A stretch of DNA of 32,000 bases from Trichlorobacter lovleyi SZ (GCF_000020385.1 NC_010814.1:1560001-1592000), one strand, 5' to 3'; shown: positions 3,189 through 22,276, counted from the first letter of the stretch. Notes: generated from the letters alone by a model not told the origin. A program made the numbers and translations.

Positions 3189-4455
3189 TACTATTTCTAT
3201 GTTTAAAAAGGTAAATTGTACTATCAGAAAATGACATGAAAATAAGTAAAAAAGGGAAAGTGAGTGGGCTAAATATGACTGCGGCTGGTATCATAAATAC
3301 GCAGGCTAGTAATATAATTGATAATACTAAAGTATTTATGTTTTTAGCTATTTGTTTTGATTTTTTATTAAATATAAATGGTGCTATTAACAAAATCAAT
3401 AACCAAACTACGCCCAAAAGACCTAATGATCTTAATATATATATCCACTCGTTATCCGCCCCTATGAAAATATTAGTAGCGCGAGGCATAAACCCCACTC
3501 CCAGAATAGGACTCATATTAAAGTATTTCCAATTTATACTCCAACCACCATATCTAGCAGAAAAACTAGTGTCTTCAGCAACATTATCTAAGTTTTCATA
3601 TCGATACAAAATTGCATTATATAAAAGTTCATTTTGCAGCAAAAATTCATATGAATAATATAGAGTAAAAATAATAATTAAACCAATAGCTATTTTTATT
3701 AATTTAATTTTAGTACTAGTATTTTTCATTGCGAATAGAAACAAAAATAAACCTGCAAAAAGAGATATTAACGCTCCACGCGAAAGAGTCATAAAAAGTG
3801 CTATAAACATAACTGGTAGTGTAATTGTAATTGCAGTCTCCTTTTTATTCAAAGTCATATAGATAGCTAAAAGTATACCTATCGCCAGAGCATATCCTTG
3901 TATATTTGGATTACCCATCATTCCTACGACTCTTGGTGTTGGATAACCTGGCATCAAAGAAGTAAACTGGGTCGGTGCTATGAGAGGTATATAAATAGAA
4001 TTTAAGTTAAACAAATTAAAATATTGTTGAAAACAAACAAGAGATGAGACTGCCGCTAGTGATATATATGATCTTATTATAAATTCAATTCTGTTATTAA
4101 GCCCTGATCCATCTAAATTTATAAAATTATAAAAGATAATATATATTAATATTGACTTTGCAAGCCAAACTAACTTCATTAAATCTGCCAGCGTAGCAGG
4201 TAAAGCACAAACTGCTCCAGCAAATATTGATAGCATCAATATAGGGGGGAAAAATAGCATTATTATTACTCTTGATGGTATTTTTATACTCCAACCATTT
4301 TTGTTGGGAATGCAAAATATTATCAAAACGAATAATAATACGTAAATTTCTTCTAGCCTTATACCTATAACACCTGGGGCGTAAAAAGTTGGTGTTAATA
4401 AGAGCATAAATAGTATTGTGAATGTACTATATTTATATAAATCTGAAGTAGTCAT
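3166..4455 (-). CDS. wzy: O-antigen polymerase / O-antigen-ligase-family (Wzy-like) integral membrane protein
   Basis: 429-aa ORF, very hydrophobic, with roughly 10-12 predicted TM segments and a central loop (SRGALISLFAGLFLF...) typical of the Wzy_C/O-antigen ligase family. Very low GC. Embedded among glycosyltransferases and a flippase. Confidence 0.65.
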   Translation of the reverse strand: MTTSDLYKYSTFTILFMLLLTPTFYAPGVIGIRLEEIYVLLFVLIIFCIPNKNGWSIKIPSRVIIMLFFPPILMLSIFAGAVCALPATLADLMKLVWLAKSILIYIIFYNFINLDGSGLNNRIEFIIRSYISLAAVSSLVCFQQYFNLFNLNSIYIPLIAPTQFTSLMPGYPTPRVVGMMGNPNIQGYALAIGILLAIYMTLNKKETAITITLPVMFIALFMTLSRGALISLFAGLFLFLFAMKNTSTKIKLIKIAIGLIIIFTLYYSYEFLLQNELLYNAILYRYENLDNVAEDTSFSARYGGWSINWKYFNMSPILGVGFMPRATNIFIGADNEWIYILRSLGLLGVVWLLILLIAPFIFNKKSKQIAKNINTLVLSIILLACVFMIPAAVIFSPLTFPFLLIFMSFSDSTIYLFKHRNSNDFIINS

Positions 4456-13287: not shown

Positions 13288-14543
13288 TGATTCTGGTCCT
13301 GTGCGCTGTAAATTCTTCCGGTGTCATTCTAATTCATTCAAGTCATAGAAAATATTCCGTTAAGCGAGTATACTCAATGACGGAGGAGTTTAATGGCAAT
13401 GAAAGCAAAGTCAAACCAAGTAAGACAGCGTTATTCTCAACAGTTCAAGACAGAAACGCTGGCGTTTGTTGAAAAGGTCGGCATTCCTGCAGCAGTCAAA
13501 CAATTAGGTCTTCACGAAAGCCAGTTTTACCCCTGACGCAATTAGTTTCGTCTTTCACAGGAGCGCAGTGCTGTAGAAGAACGGCTTCTTGCTGAGAATG
13601 CTCGACTCAAGAGTCAGTTGGCTGAGCAGGTCGTGGAGCTGGCACTAGTGAAAAGGCCGCAGCGTATTTCGCGAAAAGCCTGAAGAGAAGTACGCCTTTA
13701 TCCGTGAGCATGTTGGCCAGTTTTGAGTCAGCAGCATCTATCGGGCTCTCGTCGTTTCACACAGTGGCTATTATCGCTGGTTAAACCGCGACCAACGGCC
13801 AATAAGCCGTCAGATGCAGCGTGAATTTCTCGATCAGTTAGTTGCAGGTGCCTTTGCTGTCTGGAAGAAACGCTCAGTATCGCTGATGCTGGCTCTTTAC
13901 CTAAAAGAGCAAGGTCACCATTATGATCGCAAAACTGTGGCTGCCAGCATGAAACGCCAACATCTGAGGGCGAAGGTAGCAAAGACGTTCAAGGCAACCA
14001 CCAATTCTAAGTACGACCTACAGGTGGCACCGAACCTGCTGCAGCAATATTTCAGCGCTGCGGCACCAAACCAGAAGTAAGTGGTGACATTACCTACTTT
14101 TGAACTGAAGATGGCTGGCTCTACTTGGTCGTTATAATCGACCTTTACCCGCCTGCCAGTTAACTAGCGAAGCACAGAAAATGGCTTTATGACGTCGAAG
14201 AATGCCCAAAGGGGTGAGCGTCCACTCCGACAGCGGCAGTCAATACTGCTCAGTCCCCTATCAACCGGTACTGACGCAGTATTCGCTGATTTGCAGCATG
14301 AGCGCCAAGGGCAACTGTTATGACAACGCCTGTGCTGAAAGTTTCTTCCACACCTTGAAAGTTGAAGCCATTCAAGGAGAACGATTTGTAACTCGCGAAG
14401 AGGTGCGTCATACTGTGTTAGAATATATTGAAGTAGACTACAGTTGTAATCAACGCCACAACGCAATTGGTCGTATCAGCACAATAGCGTTTGAGGTTCT
14501 CAAAGCAGCTTAGCTGAATGTCTACTCTGATCGGGCAAGATCA
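13288..14543 (+). mobile_element. IS3-family insertion sequence relic (boundaries tentative)
   Basis: Contains decayed orfA/orfB (next feature). Candidate ends are TGATTCTGG... at 13288 and ...GCAAGATCA at 14543 (TG...CA termini, weak inverted-repeat similarity). The ~1.26-kb length fits IS3 family members. Confidence 0.6.
13393..14513 (+). pseudogene. IS3-family transposase OrfA/OrfB, inactivated by several stops, frameshifts and an internal deletion
   Basis: OrfA-like MAMKAKSNQVRQRYSQQFKTETLAFVEKVGIPAAVKQLGLHESQFYP then TGA where IS3 OrfA proteins have W (..YNWR..), followed by a leucine-zipper remnant (LLAENARLKSQLAEQVVELALVK). OrfB fragments in shifting frames: KYAFIREHVGQF, YYRWLNRDQRPISRQMQREFLDQL, YDRKTVAASMKRQHLRAKVAK, GDITYF-stop-TEDGWLYLVVIIDLY, VHSDSGSQYCS, SMSAKGNCYDNACAESFFHTLKVEAI (rve integrase core). 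Confidence 0.8.
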
Positions 14544-14545
14544 GC

Positions 14546-15691
14546 TTAGTGTAGAAAGAGATTCAGTATCTTATTGGAAGCATCGCCCGTGCCATATAGT
14601 GCTCGATCGACATCGACTGTTTTAGACGACATCTCCTGAAAACATGCAAGTATCCGCATGTAATCCGCACTGGCCAAGATGTTAAAGCCATTATCTACCA
14701 GCTCGACCCACTCCGTTTCATCACGCAAGGTGATACAGGGCTTGCCAAAGAAATAGGCCTCTTTTTGTAAGCCGCCACTGTCAGTCATAACCATCGTCGC
14801 ATGTTTCAGCAGCTCAACCATGTCAAAATAACCAACCGGGTCCAGTAGTGTCAGAGCATCGTTGATTATAGCGAGTGCATCAGAACCGCTGAATACAGTC
14901 GTAAGTATATTGCGTGTGCGCGGGTGCAAAGGCACTACTACACGCATGTCTTTGTTGATTTCTACCAGAGCTCTGAAAATGCTTTTCAACCGATCTGGAT
15001 CATCAGTATTTTCAGCACGATGGATGGTGCAGAGAACAAACTTCCGGCCTTTCAAATTCAAGCCTTTCATAACGGTACTTCGTTCAGCAGAAAACGTACT
15101 GTAATGTAAGGCGGCGTCATACATTACATCTCCTGTGTTGACAACCAGCGGTACGCTATTTGCTGATAGCAGCTTGTCGCTATTTTGAAAACCTTCGGCA
15201 ACAAGATTTTTAACTGCTGTTTCAGTCGGGCAGCAGAGGATGTCGCTGATCCGGTCGGTGAGGATACGGTTAATCTCTTCAGGCATATTCATATTGAAAC
15301 TACGGAGCCCTGCTTCCACATGCACAACCTTGATATGGAGCTTTCTTGCTGCCAATGCTCCGGCAAGGGTAGAATTAGTATCACCATAGACAAGCACATA
15401 ATCAGGCTTTTCCTTAAGCAGTACTTCTTCGATTTTCTCCAGCATTCTGCCAGTCATAGCGCCATGGCTGAGCGAGTTTATTGCAAGGTGATAGTCAGGC
15501 TTTGGTATATCCATTTCTTCAAAGAAGATGTCTGACATATTGGCATCAAAATGCTGGCCAGTGTGAACAATAATTTCGCTAATTGAGGATTGTTGATCGT
15601 TTCGCGCTGCGATATGAGCCGCAATGGAACGGCTGACGGCAGCTGCCTTGATAAATTGCGGGCGTGCCCCGATGATGGTTACAATCTTCAC
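14546..15691 (-). CDS. wbpI: UDP-N-acetylglucosamine-type 2-epimerase (WbpI/WecB family), predicted UDP-2,3-diacetamido-2,3-dideoxy-D-glucuronate 2-epimerase
   Basis: 381-aa ORF. The N-terminus (V)KIVTIIGARPQFIKAAAV and later blocks (VLVYGDTNSTLAGALAA, HVEAGLRS, PEEINR, DSGGLQKEA) are hallmarks of non-hydrolysing 2-epimerases. GTG start overlaps the wbpE stop (GTGA). Co-located with wbpA/B/D/E. Confidence 0.85.
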   Translation of the reverse strand: MKIVTIIGARPQFIKAAAVSRSIAAHIAARNDQQSSISEIIVHTGQHFDANMSDIFFEEMDIPKPDYHLAINSLSHGAMTGRMLEKIEEVLLKEKPDYVLVYGDTNSTLAGALAARKLHIKVVHVEAGLRSFNMNMPEEINRILTDRISDILCCPTETAVKNLVAEGFQNSDKLLSANSVPLVVNTGDVMYDAALHYSTFSAERSTVMKGLNLKGRKFVLCTIHRAENTDDPDRLKSIFRALVEINKDMRVVVPLHPRTRNILTTVFSGSDALAIINDALTLLDPVGYFDMVELLKHATMVMTDSGGLQKEAYFFGKPCITLRDETEWVELVDNGFNILASADYMRILACFQEMSSKTVDVDRALYGTGDASNKILNLFLH

Positions 15692-17295
15692 TTTATAACT
15701 CCAGCTCCAGCGACTGTAGTAGAGATAGCTATCTGTTGATCTGTTGCAAGATACGCGTGCATCGGCAGGCTTATGACCCGTTGTGCCAGTGCGGCTGCCA
15801 CTGGTGTTTCAGCACCTTTGCACAGAGTTTTATAGGCAGGTTGTTCATTCAACGGAATCGGATAGTGGACTGCGGTGGGGATGGACAAGGGTGAAGGGGG
15901 AAGAGTGAAGGATGAAGAAGAGACGCCTTCAGTTAACCTCTTCTGCAGCTCATCTCGATTATCCACCAACACGGTGTACTGGGCGAAGACGCCGGTTCGA
16001 TCAGGCCGTTGCTGTACCCGCTGGATACCGTGTTGATCCATCAGTTGATTGTACTGCGCACCGATCTTGATCCGCTGTTTTATTTCCCACTCAAACTGTT
16101 CTAATTTGGCCAGCAGCACGGCAGCCTGGATGGTGTCAAACCGCCCGCCAACACCGATGCGGGTATGGACATACCGTTTGCTCTGGCCATGCACCCTTAT
16201 CTCACGGCAGGCCTGGGCTAGGGCGTCATCACTGGTGAAGATGGCTCCGCCATCGCCATAGCAGCCTAGCGGTTTACTGGGAAAGAAGCTGGTGCAGCCG
16301 ACCGTGCTTACGTTGCAGGATTTTCTGCCTTTGTAGGTGGCGCCAAAGGACTGGCAGGCGTCTTCAATAACCGGCAAACCATGCTTTGCTGCAACGGCGT
16401 TGATCTCATCCATATCGGCCGGTTGCCCATACAGGCTGACCGGGATGATGGCCTTTGTTTTGTCAGTAATGGCTGCCTTTATCTTGCTGGGGTCAATGTT
16501 GCAGGTGTCAGGCTCAACATCCACAAAGACCGGTGTGGCACCCAAGAGGACAATCACTTCGGCAGTGGCAACAAAGGTAAAGGGGGGGGTGATGACTTCA
16601 ACGCCTGGGCCTATACCCAACGCCATCAGGCTGATCAGCAGCGCCTCGGTACCGCTGGCTACGGTGATGCAGTGCTGTGCACCGGTGTAGGTAGCCAATT
16701 TTTCTTCCAGTTGCTTGATTTCTGGCCCCATGATGTACTGGCCGTGACGAAGAACTGTCGCAATATTTTTCTCAATGTTTGGCAAAATCCGGTGTTGCTG
16801 TGCTGCCAGATCAATAAAGGGAATTGATCCCTTCGCAGTATCGCTAGATGTTATCCAGGCCAAGGCTTGCGCTGGATTAAAAACAGGTACTTCACCTAAT
16901 GCATCAAACTCCTCATCTTCAGAGACAATACACACAGATGCACCATGCAGGCTTCTGATCGAAGCAGCAATCTGAGCATCTTCAAAGTCTTTAGCAGAGC
17001 TGTAGATTCCCTTCTGATCAAAGCCATAGTTGGTTAGAATATCGACACATTGAAAAAGATCCGTCATCAGTCCAGAGACCAGAGTTTGTACCTCATCTGG
17101 TGGGACACCACGCTGCTTAAATGAACGCTTGGCAACATATTCAATGGTTGGAATGCTGGACGCTGATAACCACAGCTTTACCTGATCAGCTCTTGAGAGA
17201 TCTAAAATCTTTTCTGTGATCTCTTCAGAACCTAGCCCCAACCAAGTGTCAACTATCACGTTTACATCAAGTAGTAGATGTTTATCACCTCTCAA
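15688..17295 (-). CDS. wbpE: Single ORF fusing a PIN-domain (PIN_3-like) toxin (codons 1-156; 17295-16828) to a DegT/WbpE-type PLP aminotransferase (16827-15688)
   Basis: Track ORF 15688-17487; its first 64 codons overlap the antitoxin gene out of frame and are discarded. A TTG at 17295 (GGAGGAG 9-12 nt upstream) gives (M)RGDKHLLLDVNVIVDTW...SIPTIEYV...KDFEDAQIAASI...CIVSEDEEF...VFNPAQALAWI, a PIN layout with four acidic residues. From SIPFIDLAAQQHRILPNIEKNIATVLRHGQYIMGPEIKQLEEKLA... to the end it aligns by eye with P. aeruginosa WbpE (FIDL, RHGQYI.GPE, ASGT.AL, IPVSLYGQ.AD, SFFPSKPLGCYGDGGAIFT, TAVHYPIPLN.QPA). There is no stop and no ATG/GTG at the junction. Confidence 0.6.
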   Translation of the reverse strand: MRGDKHLLLDVNVIVDTWLGLGSEEITEKILDLSRADQVKLWLSASSIPTIEYVAKRSFKQRGVPPDEVQTLVSGLMTDLFQCVDILTNYGFDQKGIYSSAKDFEDAQIAASIRSLHGASVCIVSEDEEFDALGEVPVFNPAQALAWITSSDTAKGSIPFIDLAAQQHRILPNIEKNIATVLRHGQYIMGPEIKQLEEKLATYTGAQHCITVASGTEALLISLMALGIGPGVEVITPPFTFVATAEVIVLLGATPVFVDVEPDTCNIDPSKIKAAITDKTKAIIPVSLYGQPADMDEINAVAAKHGLPVIEDACQSFGATYKGRKSCNVSTVGCTSFFPSKPLGCYGDGGAIFTSDDALAQACREIRVHGQSKRYVHTRIGVGGRFDTIQAAVLLAKLEQFEWEIKQRIKIGAQYNQLMDQHGIQRVQQRPDRTGVFAQYTVLVDNRDELQKRLTEGVSSSSFTLPPSPLSIPTAVHYPIPLNEQPAYKTLCKGAETPVAAALAQRVISLPMHAYLATDQQIAISTTVAGAGVIK

Positions 17296-17593
17296 TGTAC
17301 TTCTCCTCCAGATGCTCATGCCACAGTGCCTTGTAATCTGCTTTGCCTGATGGTCCACCATGATGTCGCCATTTACCAAGTAGTGCGTCAAGGCGTTCGC
17401 GTGTGGGTGACAGATGAGCAGTTGAAGGTTGCTGTTCGACCAGAGTAGGCTGGACAATTGTTGACTGAAGTTGAGCCTCTTCTTCAATATATTTGTCAGG
17501 AATTATTACATCCAGTTCAATTCTTTTTGCTCTTAAATAAACAGGCTGCTGGAATGTAAGCTTTCCATCTTCATAAATTGCATGTACTTGCAT
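17285..17593 (-). CDS. Small antitoxin-like protein (AF2212/DUF104-like N-terminus) upstream of the PIN ORF
   Basis: 102-aa ORF. MQVHAIYEDGKLTFQQPVYLRAKRIELDVIIPD resembles the MxxIxAxYENGxLKPLEPLxLxEGxxVxxxI signature of DUF104-type antitoxins that pair with PIN toxins. AAGGAA RBS. Its 3' end overlaps the TTG start of the PIN ORF by 11 nt. Confidence 0.6.
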   Translation of the reverse strand: MQVHAIYEDGKLTFQQPVYLRAKRIELDVIIPDKYIEEEAQLQSTIVQPTLVEQQPSTAHLSPTRERLDALLGKWRHHGGPSGKADYKALWHEHLEEKYIER

Positions 17594-17613
17594 ACTTGTT
17601 CCTTTTATTACCT

Positions 17614-17917
17614 GCGGTCTCGCACAGAGGCGCAGAGAACATCATGACGCACTGGTGATACAGCATTAACCAATCTGGTGATTCCATCCTTCAAACAGCC
17701 ACGTTTAAATTTATAAATAAACCTAGAAGCTTATGAGCCAACAGTAAATAGGTAAGCAGTTGCCTGGCATGAACCGGCTGCGCCTTTTCAAAGCTTCCTC
17801 GCACAGAGACACAGAGAAAACCTGATTACCTAATGATAATAATGACAAAAAAGAACCTATCATGCTTCTAACATTTTTGACTTTCTCTGTGCAACTCCGC
17901 GCCTCTGTGCGAGACTG
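17614..17917. repeat. REP/MITE-like element: three copies of CTCGCACAGAG(G/A)C(G/A)CAGAGAA, the outer two inverted
   Basis: GTCTCGCACAGAGGCGC at 17617-17633 has a perfect reverse complement at 17899-17915 (19/20 when extended). A third, direct copy CCTCGCACAGAGACACAGAGAAAA lies at 17797-17820. The AT-rich interior has no credible ORF. The right copy starts 5 nt after the wbpA stop. Confidence 0.65.
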
Positions 17918-17920
17918 CCT

Positions 17921-19225
17921 TTACGCTTTTATGATATTCTCTGCCGGTTCCAGGTAAACCCCACGGGTATCGACAATCAAGGCCGCATGTTGTTTGATTA
18001 ATGCATAATCAAACTTGTCATGGTTGGTAGCCACAATAACACAATCATACCCTTTTAGCGATTGTTCGGTTACGTCAACACTGGAGAGCTCAAAGCGGTG
18101 TTCCCGCATCTGGGGAAAGACCGGCACGTGGGGGTCGGCGTAGGAGATAAGCGCGCCTTTATCCCGCAGTTGTTCCATGATCTCAACCGAGGGAGACTCG
18201 CGCATGTCGTCCACATTCTTTTTGTAGGCGATCCCCAGCACCAGCACCTTGCTGCCTTTGATCGATTTGCAGTGGTTGTTGAGCCCTTCAGCTACTTTGG
18301 TTAACACCCATTCCGGCATGGAACTGTTGACTTCGCCGGCCAGTTCGATAAAGCGGGTGTGCAGGCCGTATTCGCGGGCCTTCCAAGTTAAATAGAACGG
18401 GTCAATTGGGATACAGTGACCACCCAGGCCGGGGCCGGGGTAGTAGGCGGTAAACCCGAACGGTTTGGTGGCTGCAGCCCGGATGACTTCATGGATGTCA
18501 ATCCCCATTTTGTCGGCAACGATCTTCATCTCATTAACCAGGCCGATATTGACCGCCCGATGGATGTTTTCCAACAGCTTGGTCATTTCTGCCACACGGG
18601 TGCTGCTGACCGGTACGACCGTGTCGATCACCTGGCCATACAGCGCCAGACCTGCCTGCTGGCAGGCCGTGGTGCAGCCGCCGCAGACCTTGGGAATGGT
18701 GCGGGTGTGGAAGTTGGGGTTGCCCGGGTCTTCCCGCTCTGGTGAATATACCAGAAAAACATCTTTGCCAACCACCAGTCCCCTGGACTCAACACGCGGC
18801 TTGAGCTCTTCATCAGTAGTGCCGGGATAAGTGGTGCTCTCCAGTGAAACCACCTGGCCTGCCCGCAGGTGCGGCACCAGGGCATCGGTGGTGTCGGTAA
18901 CGAAACTGAGGTCGGGCTCGCGGTATTTGTTGAGCGGTGTGGGGACGCAGACGATCAGGGCATCGGCCTCGTTGCTGCGAGAGAAGTCAGTGGTGGCCTC
19001 AAAGCCATTGCTGACCGCTTGAGCAATGGCTGAAGCAGGGATATGCTCGATGTAACTCTCGCCGCGATTGAGCTTCTCAGTTTTAGCTGCGTCAATATCA
19101 AGTCCCAGTACCTTGTAGCCGACTTCTGTATAGCGCAGCATCAGTGGCAGTCCGACGTAGCCCAGGCCGACAATACCGATGGTGGCGGTTTTTTGGGTGA
19201 GTTTTTCCACTAGCGGTGCAAGCAT
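17921..19225 (-). CDS. wbpA: UDP-N-acetyl-D-glucosamine 6-dehydrogenase (nucleotide-sugar dehydrogenase family)
   Basis: 434-aa ORF. N-terminal Rossmann motif [13 protein letters not shown], catalytic-Cys region [11 protein letters not shown], and C-terminal UDP-binding domain. Its size and its neighbours (wbpB/D/E/I) match WbpA/WecC-type enzymes. Confidence 0.85.
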
Positions 19226-19400: not shown

Positions 19401-20045
19401 TTATTTCAGGTCATCATAGCAGACGCTGCCAACCGCTTTTTCTGATGGTAGTGGTGCATCTTCATCGAGGTCCAGGCATTTAAGCAGTCCCGGCTGCACC
19501 TCCTGATAGCAGTAACCGCTTTCTTTGCAGACCATGATGCCATCGGGGCCGGGAGTAAGCGGCAGTCCGTGGCGGCTCATCCAGCCTTTCTGACGGGCAG
19601 GCACTCCAACCATCAGTGCGTAATCGGGAACATCTTTGGCAACCACCGCACCGGCAGCGACAAAGGCATAGCGACCTATGGTGATGCCACACACGATGGT
19701 TGCGTTCGCTCCGATGGAACAGCCCCGCCGCAGCAGGGTTGTCTCATACAGGCTACGCCGCACCACCTGGGAGCGGGGGTTGGTGACATTGGTCAAGACG
19801 CAGGAGGGGCCAAGGAAAACATCGTCTTCAATCACCGTGCCCTCATAGATGGAGACGTTGTTCTGGACCTTGACATTGGAACCGATTACCACACCGGGCG
19901 ATACCACACAGTTCTGGCCAAAGCTGCAGCGTTCACCAATGGTTGCTCCGCTCATAATGTGGCTGAAGTGCCAGATCTTGGTGCCTGCACCAATTTCTGC
20001 ACCTTCGTCGATATAGGATGATTGGTGGGCAAAGAATTCAGACAT
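19401..20045 (-). CDS. wbpD: UDP-2-acetamido-3-amino-2,3-dideoxy-D-glucuronate N-acetyltransferase (hexapeptide family)
   Basis: 214-aa ORF with left-handed beta-helix repeats and the WbpD/WlbB-like blocks KIWHFSHI, VKVQNNVSIYEGTVIEDDVFLGPSCVLTNVTNPRS, IGANATIVCG, VGVPARQKGWMSRHG. Confidence 0.8.
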   Translation of the reverse strand: MSEFFAHQSSYIDEGAEIGAGTKIWHFSHIMSGATIGERCSFGQNCVVSPGVVIGSNVKVQNNVSIYEGTVIEDDVFLGPSCVLTNVTNPRSQVVRRSLYETTLLRRGCSIGANATIVCGITIGRYAFVAAGAVVAKDVPDYALMVGVPARQKGWMSRHGLPLTPGPDGIMVCKESGYCYQEVQPGLLKCLDLDEDAPLPSEKAVGSVCYDDLK

Positions 20046-20048
20046 GGG

Positions 20049-21005
20049 CTACCTCACACTATGCTGGAGAAATGGATGTGAGTCAGAAGATATACCTGAC
20101 GCAGAGACATTGCGGATGGCATGAGCCAGTTCGATGGCCGGACGGGCATCGTCAAGGCCGAAACCGTTGCCTGCCAGGGTGTGTTTATAGACTACTGTGT
20201 GCAGATCAGTAAACCCTTCAGAGAATTCGATCTCCCTGCCATCGACCGTAATCGAGCGGAAGGTGGAGAGGCCGCACTGGGTTGCTGATTCCGGTAGGCT
20301 GCTGCGGTCAATGGAGAGGAACCACTTAACCCGGGCCTGTTCTAACTCAATCACACCACCGGTTTTCAGATTGTCGGTGTAGTGCACCTCGTTACTTTGG
20401 ACCGCGCCAAACAGCCAGATCAGCAGGTCAAAGAAATGGATGCCGATGTTTGTGGCAACGCCGCCGGCCTTTTCCTGATTGCCTTTCCAGGAGTTGAGGT
20501 ACCAGGGACCGCGGGAGGTGATGTAGGTAAGCGTGACTTCGTGTTTGGCTGATGATTGGGGGGCAGCAGCCAGTTCATCATGCAGGGTAACCAGCGAGGG
20601 GTGGACCCGCAATTGCAGGATGGTGTTGACCCGCTTTCCGCTCTCCTGCTCCATTTGTTGCAGGGCATCAAGGTTCCAAGGGTTGAGCACCAGCGGTTTT
20701 TCACAGATGGCATCGGCGCCGGTGCGAAGGGCAAAGCGGATGTGAGCATCATGCAGGTAGTTGGGGGAGCAGATGCTGACGTAATCGATCTGTCTGCCTT
20801 CCCCCTGGCGGCGTAGCTTGTCTGCAAAACGGTCAAAGCGTTCAAATTCGCTAAAGAAGGGGACATCGGGAAAAAAACGGTCCAGAATACCGACAGAATC
20901 GTTGACATCCAGGGCGGCAACCAGCCGGTTGCCGGTTTCTTTAATGGCCTTGAGATGGCGAGGGGCAATGTAGCCGCCAACACCGATTATGGCAAAGTTC
21001 TTCAT
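20049..21005 (-). CDS. wbpB: UDP-N-acetyl-D-glucosaminuronate 3-dehydrogenase (Gfo/Idh/MocA oxidoreductase)
   Basis: Start set at ATG 21005, giving MKNFAIIGVGGYIAPRHLKAIKETGN, near-identical in pattern to the WbpB N-terminus (MKNFALIGAAGYIAPRH...). 318 aa. Follows the wzz-like stop by 2 nt. Confidence 0.8.
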   Translation of the reverse strand: MKNFAIIGVGGYIAPRHLKAIKETGNRLVAALDVNDSVGILDRFFPDVPFFSEFERFDRFADKLRRQGEGRQIDYVSICSPNYLHDAHIRFALRTGADAICEKPLVLNPWNLDALQQMEQESGKRVNTILQLRVHPSLVTLHDELAAAPQSSAKHEVTLTYITSRGPWYLNSWKGNQEKAGGVATNIGIHFFDLLIWLFGAVQSNEVHYTDNLKTGGVIELEQARVKWFLSIDRSSLPESATQCGLSTFRSITVDGREIEFSEGFTDLHTVVYKHTLAGNGFGLDDARPAIELAHAIRNVSASGISSDSHPFLQHSVR

Positions 21006-21007
21006 GC

Positions 21008-22276
21008 TCACGTCCTTTTTCGGGTTACAGCGGTGATCCTGGCTTGTAATGCAGTGAACAAGGAGCTTAGCCAGGGAAAATGCTCTTGCAACGCTAGCAG
21101 ACGTGTACGGTCTTCGGGCCGCATCTGCTCCACAAAGTTGAGTAGAAACGCCAGCAGCACCATCAAGAAGCCGGTGGCAAAAGCGGCCAAGATCACGATC
21201 TGAGCACGTTTGGGCTTGCTTTTGCGCTCCGGAACCTTGGCTTTTTCCAACAGCTGGAATGGGGCAGTGTCCTTGGCCTCAGAGACCTGGGCCATCTCAT
21301 ACTGCTTGGTGAGCATCTCCAGGACTGCTTCCTGGATCTTGAACTCCCTCATCAGGCGCAGATAGTCCTGTCCCAGTTGTGGGACAGCCCCTAGTTGCGG
21401 AATGGCACTGCTGCTGTTTCCCTTGCCCTCTAGGCTGGCAATTTGACCACGCAACTGCGCCACTGCCGCCTTGACACTTTTAACCTCTTGGCTGTTGTCG
21501 GTAAACTGACGCTGCAGGGTGCCTAGTTCTACCTCTTTCACTGCCAGTTGCGCCCGCAGCTGGGCCACCCCTTCAATGGTGGCCTTGGCCTGGTCAGGGA
21601 CTGATATTGATTTATTTTTACTTTGGAATATCTTTAGTTCTTCTTCTGCCTTACTGAGGTCAGCCTTGGTTTCGGTGATCTGCTTTTCAAGGAAACGTCG
21701 GTTGTTGGTGGCACCGGTCATGTTGAGCTGTGCTGACAATTTGCCCAGTTGATCCACATACTCGTTGGCTATGGCTGCGGCTAACTTTGGGTCTTCATCG
21801 CTGAAGCTGACCGTGATGACGCCATCTTTTTTACCCAGGTTGATGGCAGTTGCACCATCAAGGGTTAGATAGACATTACTGCGCAGCTTCGCCTCATATT
21901 TTTCCATCAGTTTGAATTTATCGATGATCGGATCTTTAACGGTTTCGCTCTTAAGCATGGTGACGTAGAGATCTGCGGTGGTCTTACCCCCCAGTGGGCC
22001 GCCGGCCATGGTTACCAGGCCACCGAGCTGGGCCATCAACGCACCCATACCGCTTGAGCTGTCTTCACTGGGGATGATCATGGTCTTGGCAGTATAGATG
22101 TTAGGCATGAAGAGGGTGATGATGGCGGTGATGGCGGCCACCACAAACGGAACACCAATGATCATCCGCCAGCGCTTGGCCAGCACCAGCAGCAGGTCAA
22201 GTAGGTTGATTTCGCCCTCGACAGGGTAAGGCGTAGTATGGATACTTTTTTTGGGGGGGGGATCAGTTTGCGACAT
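21008..22276 (-). CDS. wzz: Polysaccharide co-polymerase / chain-length determinant (Wzz domain + coiled coil + C-terminal TM, no kinase domain)
   Basis: Start set at ATG 22276 (GGAGAGG RBS): MSQTDPPPKKSIHTTPYPVEGEINLLDLLLVLAKRWRMIIGVPFVVAAITAIITLFMP (Wzz motif plus TM1). There is a long coiled-coil centre and a C-terminal segment PERKSKPKRAQIVILAAFATGFLMVLLAFLL (GNVR-like plus TM2). Confidence 0.75.
   Translation of the reverse strand: MSQTDPPPKKSIHTTPYPVEGEINLLDLLLVLAKRWRMIIGVPFVVAAITAIITLFMPNIYTAKTMIIPSEDSSSGMGALMAQLGGLVTMAGGPLGGKTTADLYVTMLKSETVKDPIIDKFKLMEKYEAKLRSNVYLTLDGATAINLGKKDGVITVSFSDEDPKLAAAIANEYVDQLGKLSAQLNMTGATNNRRFLEKQITETKADLSKAEEELKIFQSKNKSISVPDQAKATIEGVAQLRAQLAVKEVELGTLQRQFTDNSQEVKSVKAAVAQLRGQIASLEGKGNSSSAIPQLGAVPQLGQDYLRLMREFKIQEAVLEMLTKQYEMAQVSEAKDTAPFQLLEKAKVPERKSKPKRAQIVILAAFATGFLMVLLAFLLNFVEQMRPEDRTRLLALQEHFPWLSSLFTALQARITAVTRKRT
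22246..22261 (-). repeat. Homopolymeric tract C9 followed by A7 (coding-strand sense) in codons 6-11 of the wzz-like gene
   Basis: The plus strand shows T7 (22246-22252) and G9 (22253-22261). The coding strand reads GAT CCC CCC CCC AAA AAA AGT = D PPP KK S. Confidence 0.95.

Follow-up and report, generated by a model that had tools for sequence, protein, structure and literature searches.

Much is understood about PIN toxins and about sugar aminotransferases, but only as separate proteins. Here we examine a locus of Trichlorobacter lovleyi SZ in which the two share one polypeptide. It lies in a stretch of 32,000 nucleotides (GCF_000020385.1, NC_010814.1:1560001-1592000), which we call the window throughout and in which positions are counted from the first letter. 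On the minus strand of the window, the open reading frame (ORF) 15688-17295/17319 encodes a PIN domain that a short linker joins to a complete WbpE-type aminotransferase, and a small antitoxin-like ORF overlaps its start.

For the N-terminal half, the described system to compare is VapBC, in particular the PIN_3 (PF13470) branch of VapC. The likeness covers the PIN fold, the conserved acidic residues and a small upstream partner overlapping the toxin start, and extends to the siting of stand-alone relatives within islands of restriction-modification and defence genes, to partners that co-vary with the toxin class, and to rapid, cassette-like turnover. However, VapC is a free toxin of ~130-150 amino acids (aa), whereas the PIN domain here is the N-terminal part of a biosynthetic enzyme of 535-543 aa. 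Moreover, its partner is without a recognisable AbrB, ribbon-helix-helix, PhD or helix-turn-helix DNA-binding domain.

The C-terminal half finds its counterpart in WbpE/WlbC of Pseudomonas aeruginosa (PDB 3NU7, 3NYS), with 56-61% identity, template modelling (TM) scores of 0.96-0.98, the SKPLG motif and the same wbpA/wbpB/wbpD/wbpI context. Unlike WbpE, the window enzyme is without a start codon of its own, and it carries an N-terminal PIN extension of ~165 residues and a 13-residue Ser/Pro loop. The small ORF recalls the AF2212-like proteins (DUF104, PF01954) in its N-terminal ~30 residues (MQVxAIYExGxL..P..L) and in its position next to a PIN gene, as in archaea. Yet this similarity is not significant, and the proteins found here are longer (87-134 aa), with a variable linker and an additional conserved C-terminal segment. 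Finally, covalent linkage of a VapC-like PIN domain to a second catalytic domain is known from PhoH2 (PIN-PhoH; PMC5499597). In PhoH2 the partner domain also acts on RNA, whereas here it is a pyridoxal phosphate (PLP)-dependent nucleotide-sugar aminotransferase without a link to nucleic acids.

Our literature searches, including topics combining PIN domains, toxin-antitoxin (TA) systems and O-antigen, returned no description of a PIN-DegT/WbpE fusion, and the main text of the PIN superfamily classification (PMC5499597) holds no PIN-aminotransferase fusion. What is new is a VapBC-like module with its toxin domain fused to a biosynthetic enzyme, an arrangement that is common and has gone unremarked. 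Across Proteobacteria and Desulfobacterota, more than 100 lineages carry a toxin-type RNase domain, with a preserved active site, on an O-antigen/capsule enzyme. Current annotation names such genes only as ‘aminotransferase’ and the partner as ‘hypothetical’, with the PIN domain unmentioned. The 90% identity cluster of the window protein, for example, contains ‘DegT/DnrJ/EryC1/StrS aminotransferase [Trichlorobacter lovleyi SZ]’ (ACD95222.1, 535 aa), a name that omits the PIN part.

Two domains in one reading frame

An ORF scan of the window places the fusion in a minus-strand frame that is open from 17487 and runs uninterrupted to a TGA at 15688-15690. The features of the module are as follows.

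17293-17319, minus strand: alternative starts of the fusion gene, ATG at 17317-17319 (543 aa) or TTG at 17293-17295 (535 aa)
16849-17283, minus strand: VapC-like PIN domain, residues 13-157 of the 543-aa protein (from Pfam, AlphaFold2, Foldseek and residue conservation)
16825-16848, minus strand: linker SSDTAKGS between the domains, with Ser165 at the position of WbpE Met1
15688-16824, minus strand: complete WbpE-type UDP-2-acetamido-2-deoxy-3-oxo-glucuronate aminotransferase domain (from Pfam, PDB and Foldseek)
17285-17593, minus strand: small 102-aa ORF, antitoxin-like partner (ACD95223.1 / WP_012469565.1, annotated ‘hypothetical protein’)
16747-17920, minus strand: exchangeable cassette, running from the spacer through the small ORF, PIN domain and linker to aminotransferase codon ~25

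Both starts are plausible. The 543-aa form is 100% identical to a Trichlorobacter UniRef entry. The TTG has GGAGGAG (17303-17309) 7 nucleotides (nt) upstream, and its 535-aa product equals GenBank ACD95222.1 in length. In the AlphaFold2 (AF2) model, residues 1-9 of the 543-aa form are disordered, and homologues begin 2-5 residues ahead of the KHLxLD motif, which favours the TTG. The stop of the small ORF (17285-17287) overlaps the fusion gene by 35 nt if the ATG is used and by 11 nt if the TTG is used.

At the junction the codons read GCG AAG GGA TCA ATT CCC TTT ATT GAT CTG (...T-A-K-G-S-I-P-F-I-D-L...). Alignment to P. aeruginosa WbpE (PDB 3NU7; E 9e-130) starts at residue 2 of both proteins, so Ser165 (TCA) occupies the WbpE Met1 position. 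Within 12 codons on either side of Ser165 there is no ATG, GTG or TTG, and the first in-frame ATG past the junction is Met197 (16729-16731), 32 codons inside the enzyme. Since the junction offers no start codon, the enzyme would be produced solely as the C-terminal portion of the PIN protein. The linker is variable in sequence among relatives, with 8-18 residues separating the ALAW tryptophan from the FIDL phenylalanine, variation of the kind expected where two domains fold independently.

A preliminary description, made from the sequence alone, had reported the uninterrupted PIN-WbpE frame with its overlapping 102-aa ORF, intact acidic positions in the PIN domain, a junction free of ATG and GTG, and out-of-frame TAG and TAA codons within 16844-16853. 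All of these are borne out, the stops lying just upstream of the junction at 16851-16853 (TAA) and 16844-16846 (TAG). The expected Pfam assignments were also recovered: PIN_3 (PF13470) on the N-terminal part (28.0 bits, E 4.3e-6) and DegT_DnrJ_EryC1 on the C-terminal part (401 bits).

The PIN fold had to be established through structure prediction with AF2 and Foldseek, because searches of PDB sequences with the PIN domain (single sequence and profile) returned only spurious ubiquitin and designed-repeat matches. Modelled alone, the domain reaches a predicted local distance difference test score (pLDDT) of 90.1, and Foldseek aligns this model to PIN/VapC structures with probability 1.0 (1V8O, 7VWO, 9H6A, 4CHG, 5WZF). 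The top matches include PAE2754, Mycobacterium tuberculosis VapC toxins, F-plasmid VapBC, Caulobacter crescentus VapBC1 and the SMG6 PIN domain. All expected acidic residues are present in the window protein (D18, E60, D111/E113/D114 and D135, in 543-aa numbering). In a set of 120 fused relatives (see below), D18 is found in 117/117, D111 in 116/120, E113 in 119/120, D114 in 112/120 and D135 in 106/120, and position 60 is acidic in 93/120. These data mark the PIN domain as genuine and subject to selection, and the near-invariance of its acidic residues argues for a retained catalytic or metal-binding function.

The aminotransferase half is equally complete. Its PLP-lysine motif SKPLG is intact (residues 348-352, 16264-16278), and the AF2 model of the full-length fusion (pLDDT 92.9; predicted TM score, pTM, 0.89) matches WbpE structures in Foldseek with TM scores of 0.96-0.98 at 56-57% identity. 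Foldseek with the full-length model returned aminotransferases only, with no solved structure spanning both domains. Homology shows that this half should catalyse the normal WbpE step.

Two insertions in the C-terminal domain of the enzyme deserve mention. Relative to P. aeruginosa WbpE, the window enzyme carries the 13-residue, Ser/Pro-rich in-frame insertion VSSSSFTLPPSPL (15886-15924). This loop occurs in 8/120 fusions, and the window enzyme has it in common with 7 close relatives. The closest enzyme relatives of the window, which share it, nevertheless carry two different PIN classes. Separately, a low-complexity insertion of ~70-80 residues, rich in Ala/Ser/Pro/Gly/Arg, is seen in a Great Salt Lake metagenome-assembled genome (MAG; L013) and in Halochromatium glycolicum (L014); it is found neither in the window enzyme nor in WbpE.

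Recurrence of the fusion and exchange of its 5' part

Relatives were sought at several depths. A scan of GTDB with a PIN profile, using one genome per species, gave seven loci in different genera: the Great Salt Lake gammaproteobacterial MAG, Halochromatium glycolicum, Hydrogenophaga, Halospina denitrificans, Halomonas lysinitropha, Thauera phenylacetica and Accumulibacter. In 7/7 of them the PIN frame continues stop-free into a full WbpE-like enzyme. A protein set was assembled from the best relatives of the full-length query, clustered at 90% identity. All 120 of these best clusters are fusions of 448-597 aa, with coverage of at least 78% (at least 93% save for five shorter entries), and they come from Accumulibacter, Thiothrix, Thiofilum, Methylococcaceae, Kentrum, Halochromatium and many metagenomes. 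An exhaustive PIN profile search of 1.84 billion representatives added a view from the PIN side: it found 91 relatives, and most of the strong matches among them extend into the aminotransferase, the complete ones being 511-548 aa long. A word-index search with the PIN domain alone retrieved 4 proteins and so under-represented the family, the true size of which was revealed by the full-length query. Searching 72,556 plasmids with the PIN domain (tblastn) gave no match.

The fusion is therefore a recurrent, selected arrangement and no one-off accident. It is also genuine: its source is a finished isolate genome (a contig of 3,917,761 bp), and sequencing error or a strain-specific accident is excluded. 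The preliminary description had hesitated between a true PIN-aminotransferase fusion with an antitoxin-like gene, a TA cassette that had inserted and destroyed the native wbpE start, and an indel or sequencing error, and had asked whether relatives are fused or separate. The first of these holds, given the same fusion in 7/7 reference loci and in the 120 best relatives. From the second, an exchangeable cassette survives and the damaging accident does not, since the arrangement is recurrent and selected. The third is refuted by conservation and by the finished genome.

Evidence for exchange comes from comparing the two halves. PIN halves have a mean pairwise identity of 0.37 (range 0.11-1.0), enzyme halves one of 0.68 (range 0.54-0.97), and the two sets of values are uncorrelated (Pearson r = -0.01; 574/999 Mantel permutations reach the observed value). 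BLAST clustering divides the PIN halves into four classes of 97, 11, 9 and 3 members, and every class has its own small upstream ORF within a wbp-type cluster.

A related locus with the gene order of the window (L024) served as a close comparison. Between the two, wbpB is 81%, wbpD 88% and wbpA 90% identical, as against 25% for the small ORF and about 20% for the PIN domain. Over the enzyme body, 30-residue windows from residue ~181 onwards mostly show 70-100% identity, falling to 43% over the last ~30 residues. At the DNA level, similarity is undetectable across 16747-17920 in a locus otherwise 75-82% identical, and the GC content is 0.41-0.45 inside this interval versus 0.53-0.59 in its flanks. 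Because similarity is lost down to 16747, the exchanged unit includes the first ~25 wbpE codons, a segment that matches the WbpE stub seen in remnant copies (see below). The aminotransferase domains of four further loci (L015-L018) are 74-81% identical to unfused P. aeruginosa WbpE and 59-62% identical to the window enzyme, so fused enzymes are interspersed with unfused ones. Comparison of loci shows that the small ORF and PIN domain, together with the initial ~25 codons of wbpE, behave as a cassette that moves between wbpE alleles.

One of the loci with a class-2 PIN-WbpE fusion (L025) also holds, within its wbp-type cluster, two genes (868-1230 and 3607-3963) for ‘23S rRNA-intervening-sequence protein’ (PF05635).

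The small ORF is part of the unit. A homologue of 87-134 aa lies upstream of the PIN domain, either overlapping its start or directly adjoining it, in the window, in 6/7 reference-genome loci and in metagenomic relatives; all three loci of other classes (L023-L025) have a small ORF in this same position, and the stand-alone and remnant PIN relatives examined likewise carry an adjacent one. Its two ends are conserved, as an N-terminal stretch of ~35 residues (MQVxAIYExGKL...IPD) and a C-terminal motif (IDAILGPW...W.HLEEKYL), and between them lies a variable linker of low complexity; this layout resembles that of type II antitoxins. The DUF104/AF2212-like label proposed in the preliminary description is only weakly supported. 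The window protein itself has no match in Pfam or NCBIfam, PF01954 is matched by 3/12 family members (best E 0.028), and a profile of the family aligns to PDB 2NWT over residues 3-30 with E 0.74.

The spacer between wbpA and the small ORF (17614-17918) contains a 24-nt inverted repeat (17614-17637 / 17895-17918), 92% complementary and flanking 257 nt. A third copy of the repeat motif lies at 17798-17818, and the region folds with z = -3.9; it looks like a miniature inverted-repeat transposable element or a long palindromic element. This element accounts for a spacer of 327 nt here versus 53 nt in L024.

Relatives of the pair are also found away from a complete enzyme. These settings are typical of TA or defence genes: in a type I restriction system, a stand-alone PIN domain and its small upstream ORF are placed between hsdS and hsdM, and another such pair adjoins a SIR2 gene and a second PIN pair. 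In one remnant (P0001; L001-L009, 19 contigs) an intact PIN domain is followed by a WbpE N-terminal stub of ~45 residues, with the small ORF still upstream; the surroundings hold no aminotransferase and are rich in insertion sequence (IS) and TA genes (IS21 and Mu transposases, PemK and PD-(D/E)XK genes). In another (P0005) the PIN domain is kept and the enzyme is internally deleted. A truncated copy of the cassette (L012), ~79% identical to that of the window at the protein level, lies at a different location. Since the remnants keep the PIN domain and the small ORF, the pair persists after the enzyme has gone, which is how a selfish or addictive pair would behave, and by these sequence comparisons it looks like a toxin-antitoxin pair.

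The gene next to the truncated copy, judged by eye only, has a product that looks AlbA_2/Schlafen-like.

What the fused module may do

We consider the best explanation, with a probability of about 0.6, to be a VapBC-like cassette that can be exchanged, with a toxin produced solely as the N-terminal domain of WbpE and with toxicity and neutralisation that would follow the VapBC model. The locus would then be a two-gene module inside the UDP-ManNAc3NAcA (wbp) operon, with the fusion gene translationally coupled to the small ORF. By analogy with VapBC, the PIN half would be a Mg-dependent RNase held inactive by the small protein. The cassette would move between wbpE alleles by recombination in the conserved flanking sequence, which would explain divergent PIN classes on near-identical enzymes. 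The presumed pay-off is a TA or addiction module tied to a polysaccharide cluster, either stabilising the cluster against replacement or providing an RNase triggered by stress or phage. Either the host may benefit or the cassette itself, which could be carried along with an important polysaccharide gene or impose addiction to it.

Given an active PIN domain, the module would be a natural toxin-antitoxin system tethered to a metabolic enzyme, linking surface-polysaccharide clusters (which are phage receptors and recombination hot spots) to growth control at the RNA level. A more specific version, which we put forward only tentatively, is a mobile VapBC-like cassette specialised in in-frame recombination onto the 5' end of wbpE, thereby coupling an addiction or abortive-infection module to O-antigen/capsule biosynthesis. 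Such a cassette could kill cells that replace or lose the cluster, or fire when a phage shuts down host expression, and strains would exchange PIN/antitoxin specificities, much as happens in other conflict systems.

Several observations weigh against a tethered toxin. The PIN_3 score barely exceeds the Pfam cut-off (28.0 versus 27), and the second acidic position is non-acidic in 27/120 fusions. No significant antitoxin-family match was obtained for the small ORF with Pfam, NCBIfam or the family profile, and PADLOC defence-system models matched neither the PIN domain nor any of four small ORFs. The pTM of 0.89 suggests that the PIN domain packs against the enzyme, so that a structural rather than toxic role is possible. 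Lastly, the enzyme of L010 is interrupted by an in-frame TAG after its first 15 codons or so, and the fused state is thus not absolutely maintained. In this copy (1-1385 of a metagenome contig) the enzyme resumes in the same frame past the TAG, which may reflect decay of the copy, a nonsense mutation or an error in the reads.

Some of these points are what the main rival would lead one to expect. It holds that the PIN domain has been exapted as an oligomerisation or scaffold module, or as an RNA-binding or RNA-cleaving regulator of the operon mRNA, with the small ORF as a regulatory partner. The stable retention of the fusion in many lineages, the fixed inter-domain arrangement suggested by the full-length model, and the lack of antitoxin-family and PADLOC matches are all in keeping with it. 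We nevertheless find it rather unlikely, as it accords poorly with an active site that is conserved, PIN classes that are swapped and relatives that resemble TA systems. A structural role would not need near-invariant catalytic acidic residues. Nor would exaptation predict four PIN classes, ~20% identical to one another, on enzymes that are 74-82% identical, together with co-varying small ORFs, or the persistence of stand-alone and remnant pairs in TA and defence contexts.

A second rival is that the enzyme is also, or mainly, produced by internal initiation, at ATT 16822-16824 or at the Met197 ATG, in which case the fusion would be a minor product. An AAGGGA resembling a Shine-Dalgarno sequence does lie 3 nt 5' of the ATT (codon 166), and an ATG occupies this position in 2/13 loci at the DNA level (Thauera, Thiofilum). 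However, a 3-nt spacing is too short for efficiency and ATT is a very weak start codon. In the 120 fusions, the WbpE Met1 position itself is always filled by P, S, K, A, T or V rather than M. At the next residue, that of the ATT, M occurs in 9/120, and Met is missing there in 11/13 loci and 111/120 proteins. A start at Met197 would drop 32 conserved residues, which align with WbpE from residue 2. Moreover, the frame is stop-free up to the junction, and any PIN product would always be enzyme-fused. We regard internal initiation as improbable.

That a sequencing error, an indel or a recent insertion merely joined two genes is a negligible prospect: out-of-frame stops just 5' of the junction and a drop in GC over the PIN and small-ORF interval would fit, but 7 reference genomes and more than 120 protein clusters share the fusion, the sequence comes from an isolate with a 3.9-Mb contig, and the catalytic residues are intact in both halves.

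We also considered a PIN domain acting on UDP-sugars instead of RNA. This idea was rejected as unsupported: the small partner ORF, and the stand-alone relatives that lie among restriction-modification and defence genes, speak for an origin in TA systems.

Operon context

The genes around the module were identified as follows.

14546-15691, minus strand: wecB/wbpI-like UDP-GlcNAc 2-epimerase, the downstream neighbour; its GTG start overlaps the stop of the fusion gene
17921-19225, minus strand: wbpA-like UDP-GlcNAc 6-dehydrogenase, the upstream neighbour
19401-20045: hexapeptide acetyltransferase, wbpD-like
20049-21011: wbpB-like oxidoreductase of the GFO/IDH/MocA type; its own oxidoreductase matches are weak, and the family was assigned through the 81%-identical gene of L024 (GFO_IDH_MocA)

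With wbpA-, wbpB-, wbpD- and wbpI-like genes found, the neighbourhood is a UDP-ManNAc3NAcA-type (wbp) polysaccharide cluster. The cluster also holds glmS, a chain-length determinant, a flippase, an amidotransferase and glycosyltransferases. An Rfam scan of the window gave no match, and a promoter and terminator scan of the window found sites no more frequent than chance. Between the flippase gene and wecB/wbpI lies a fragmented remnant of an IS3-family transposase (13393-14513), in which the ORF 14202-14513 covers positions 275-369 of a 369-position IS3 transposase profile and short ORFs are found upstream.

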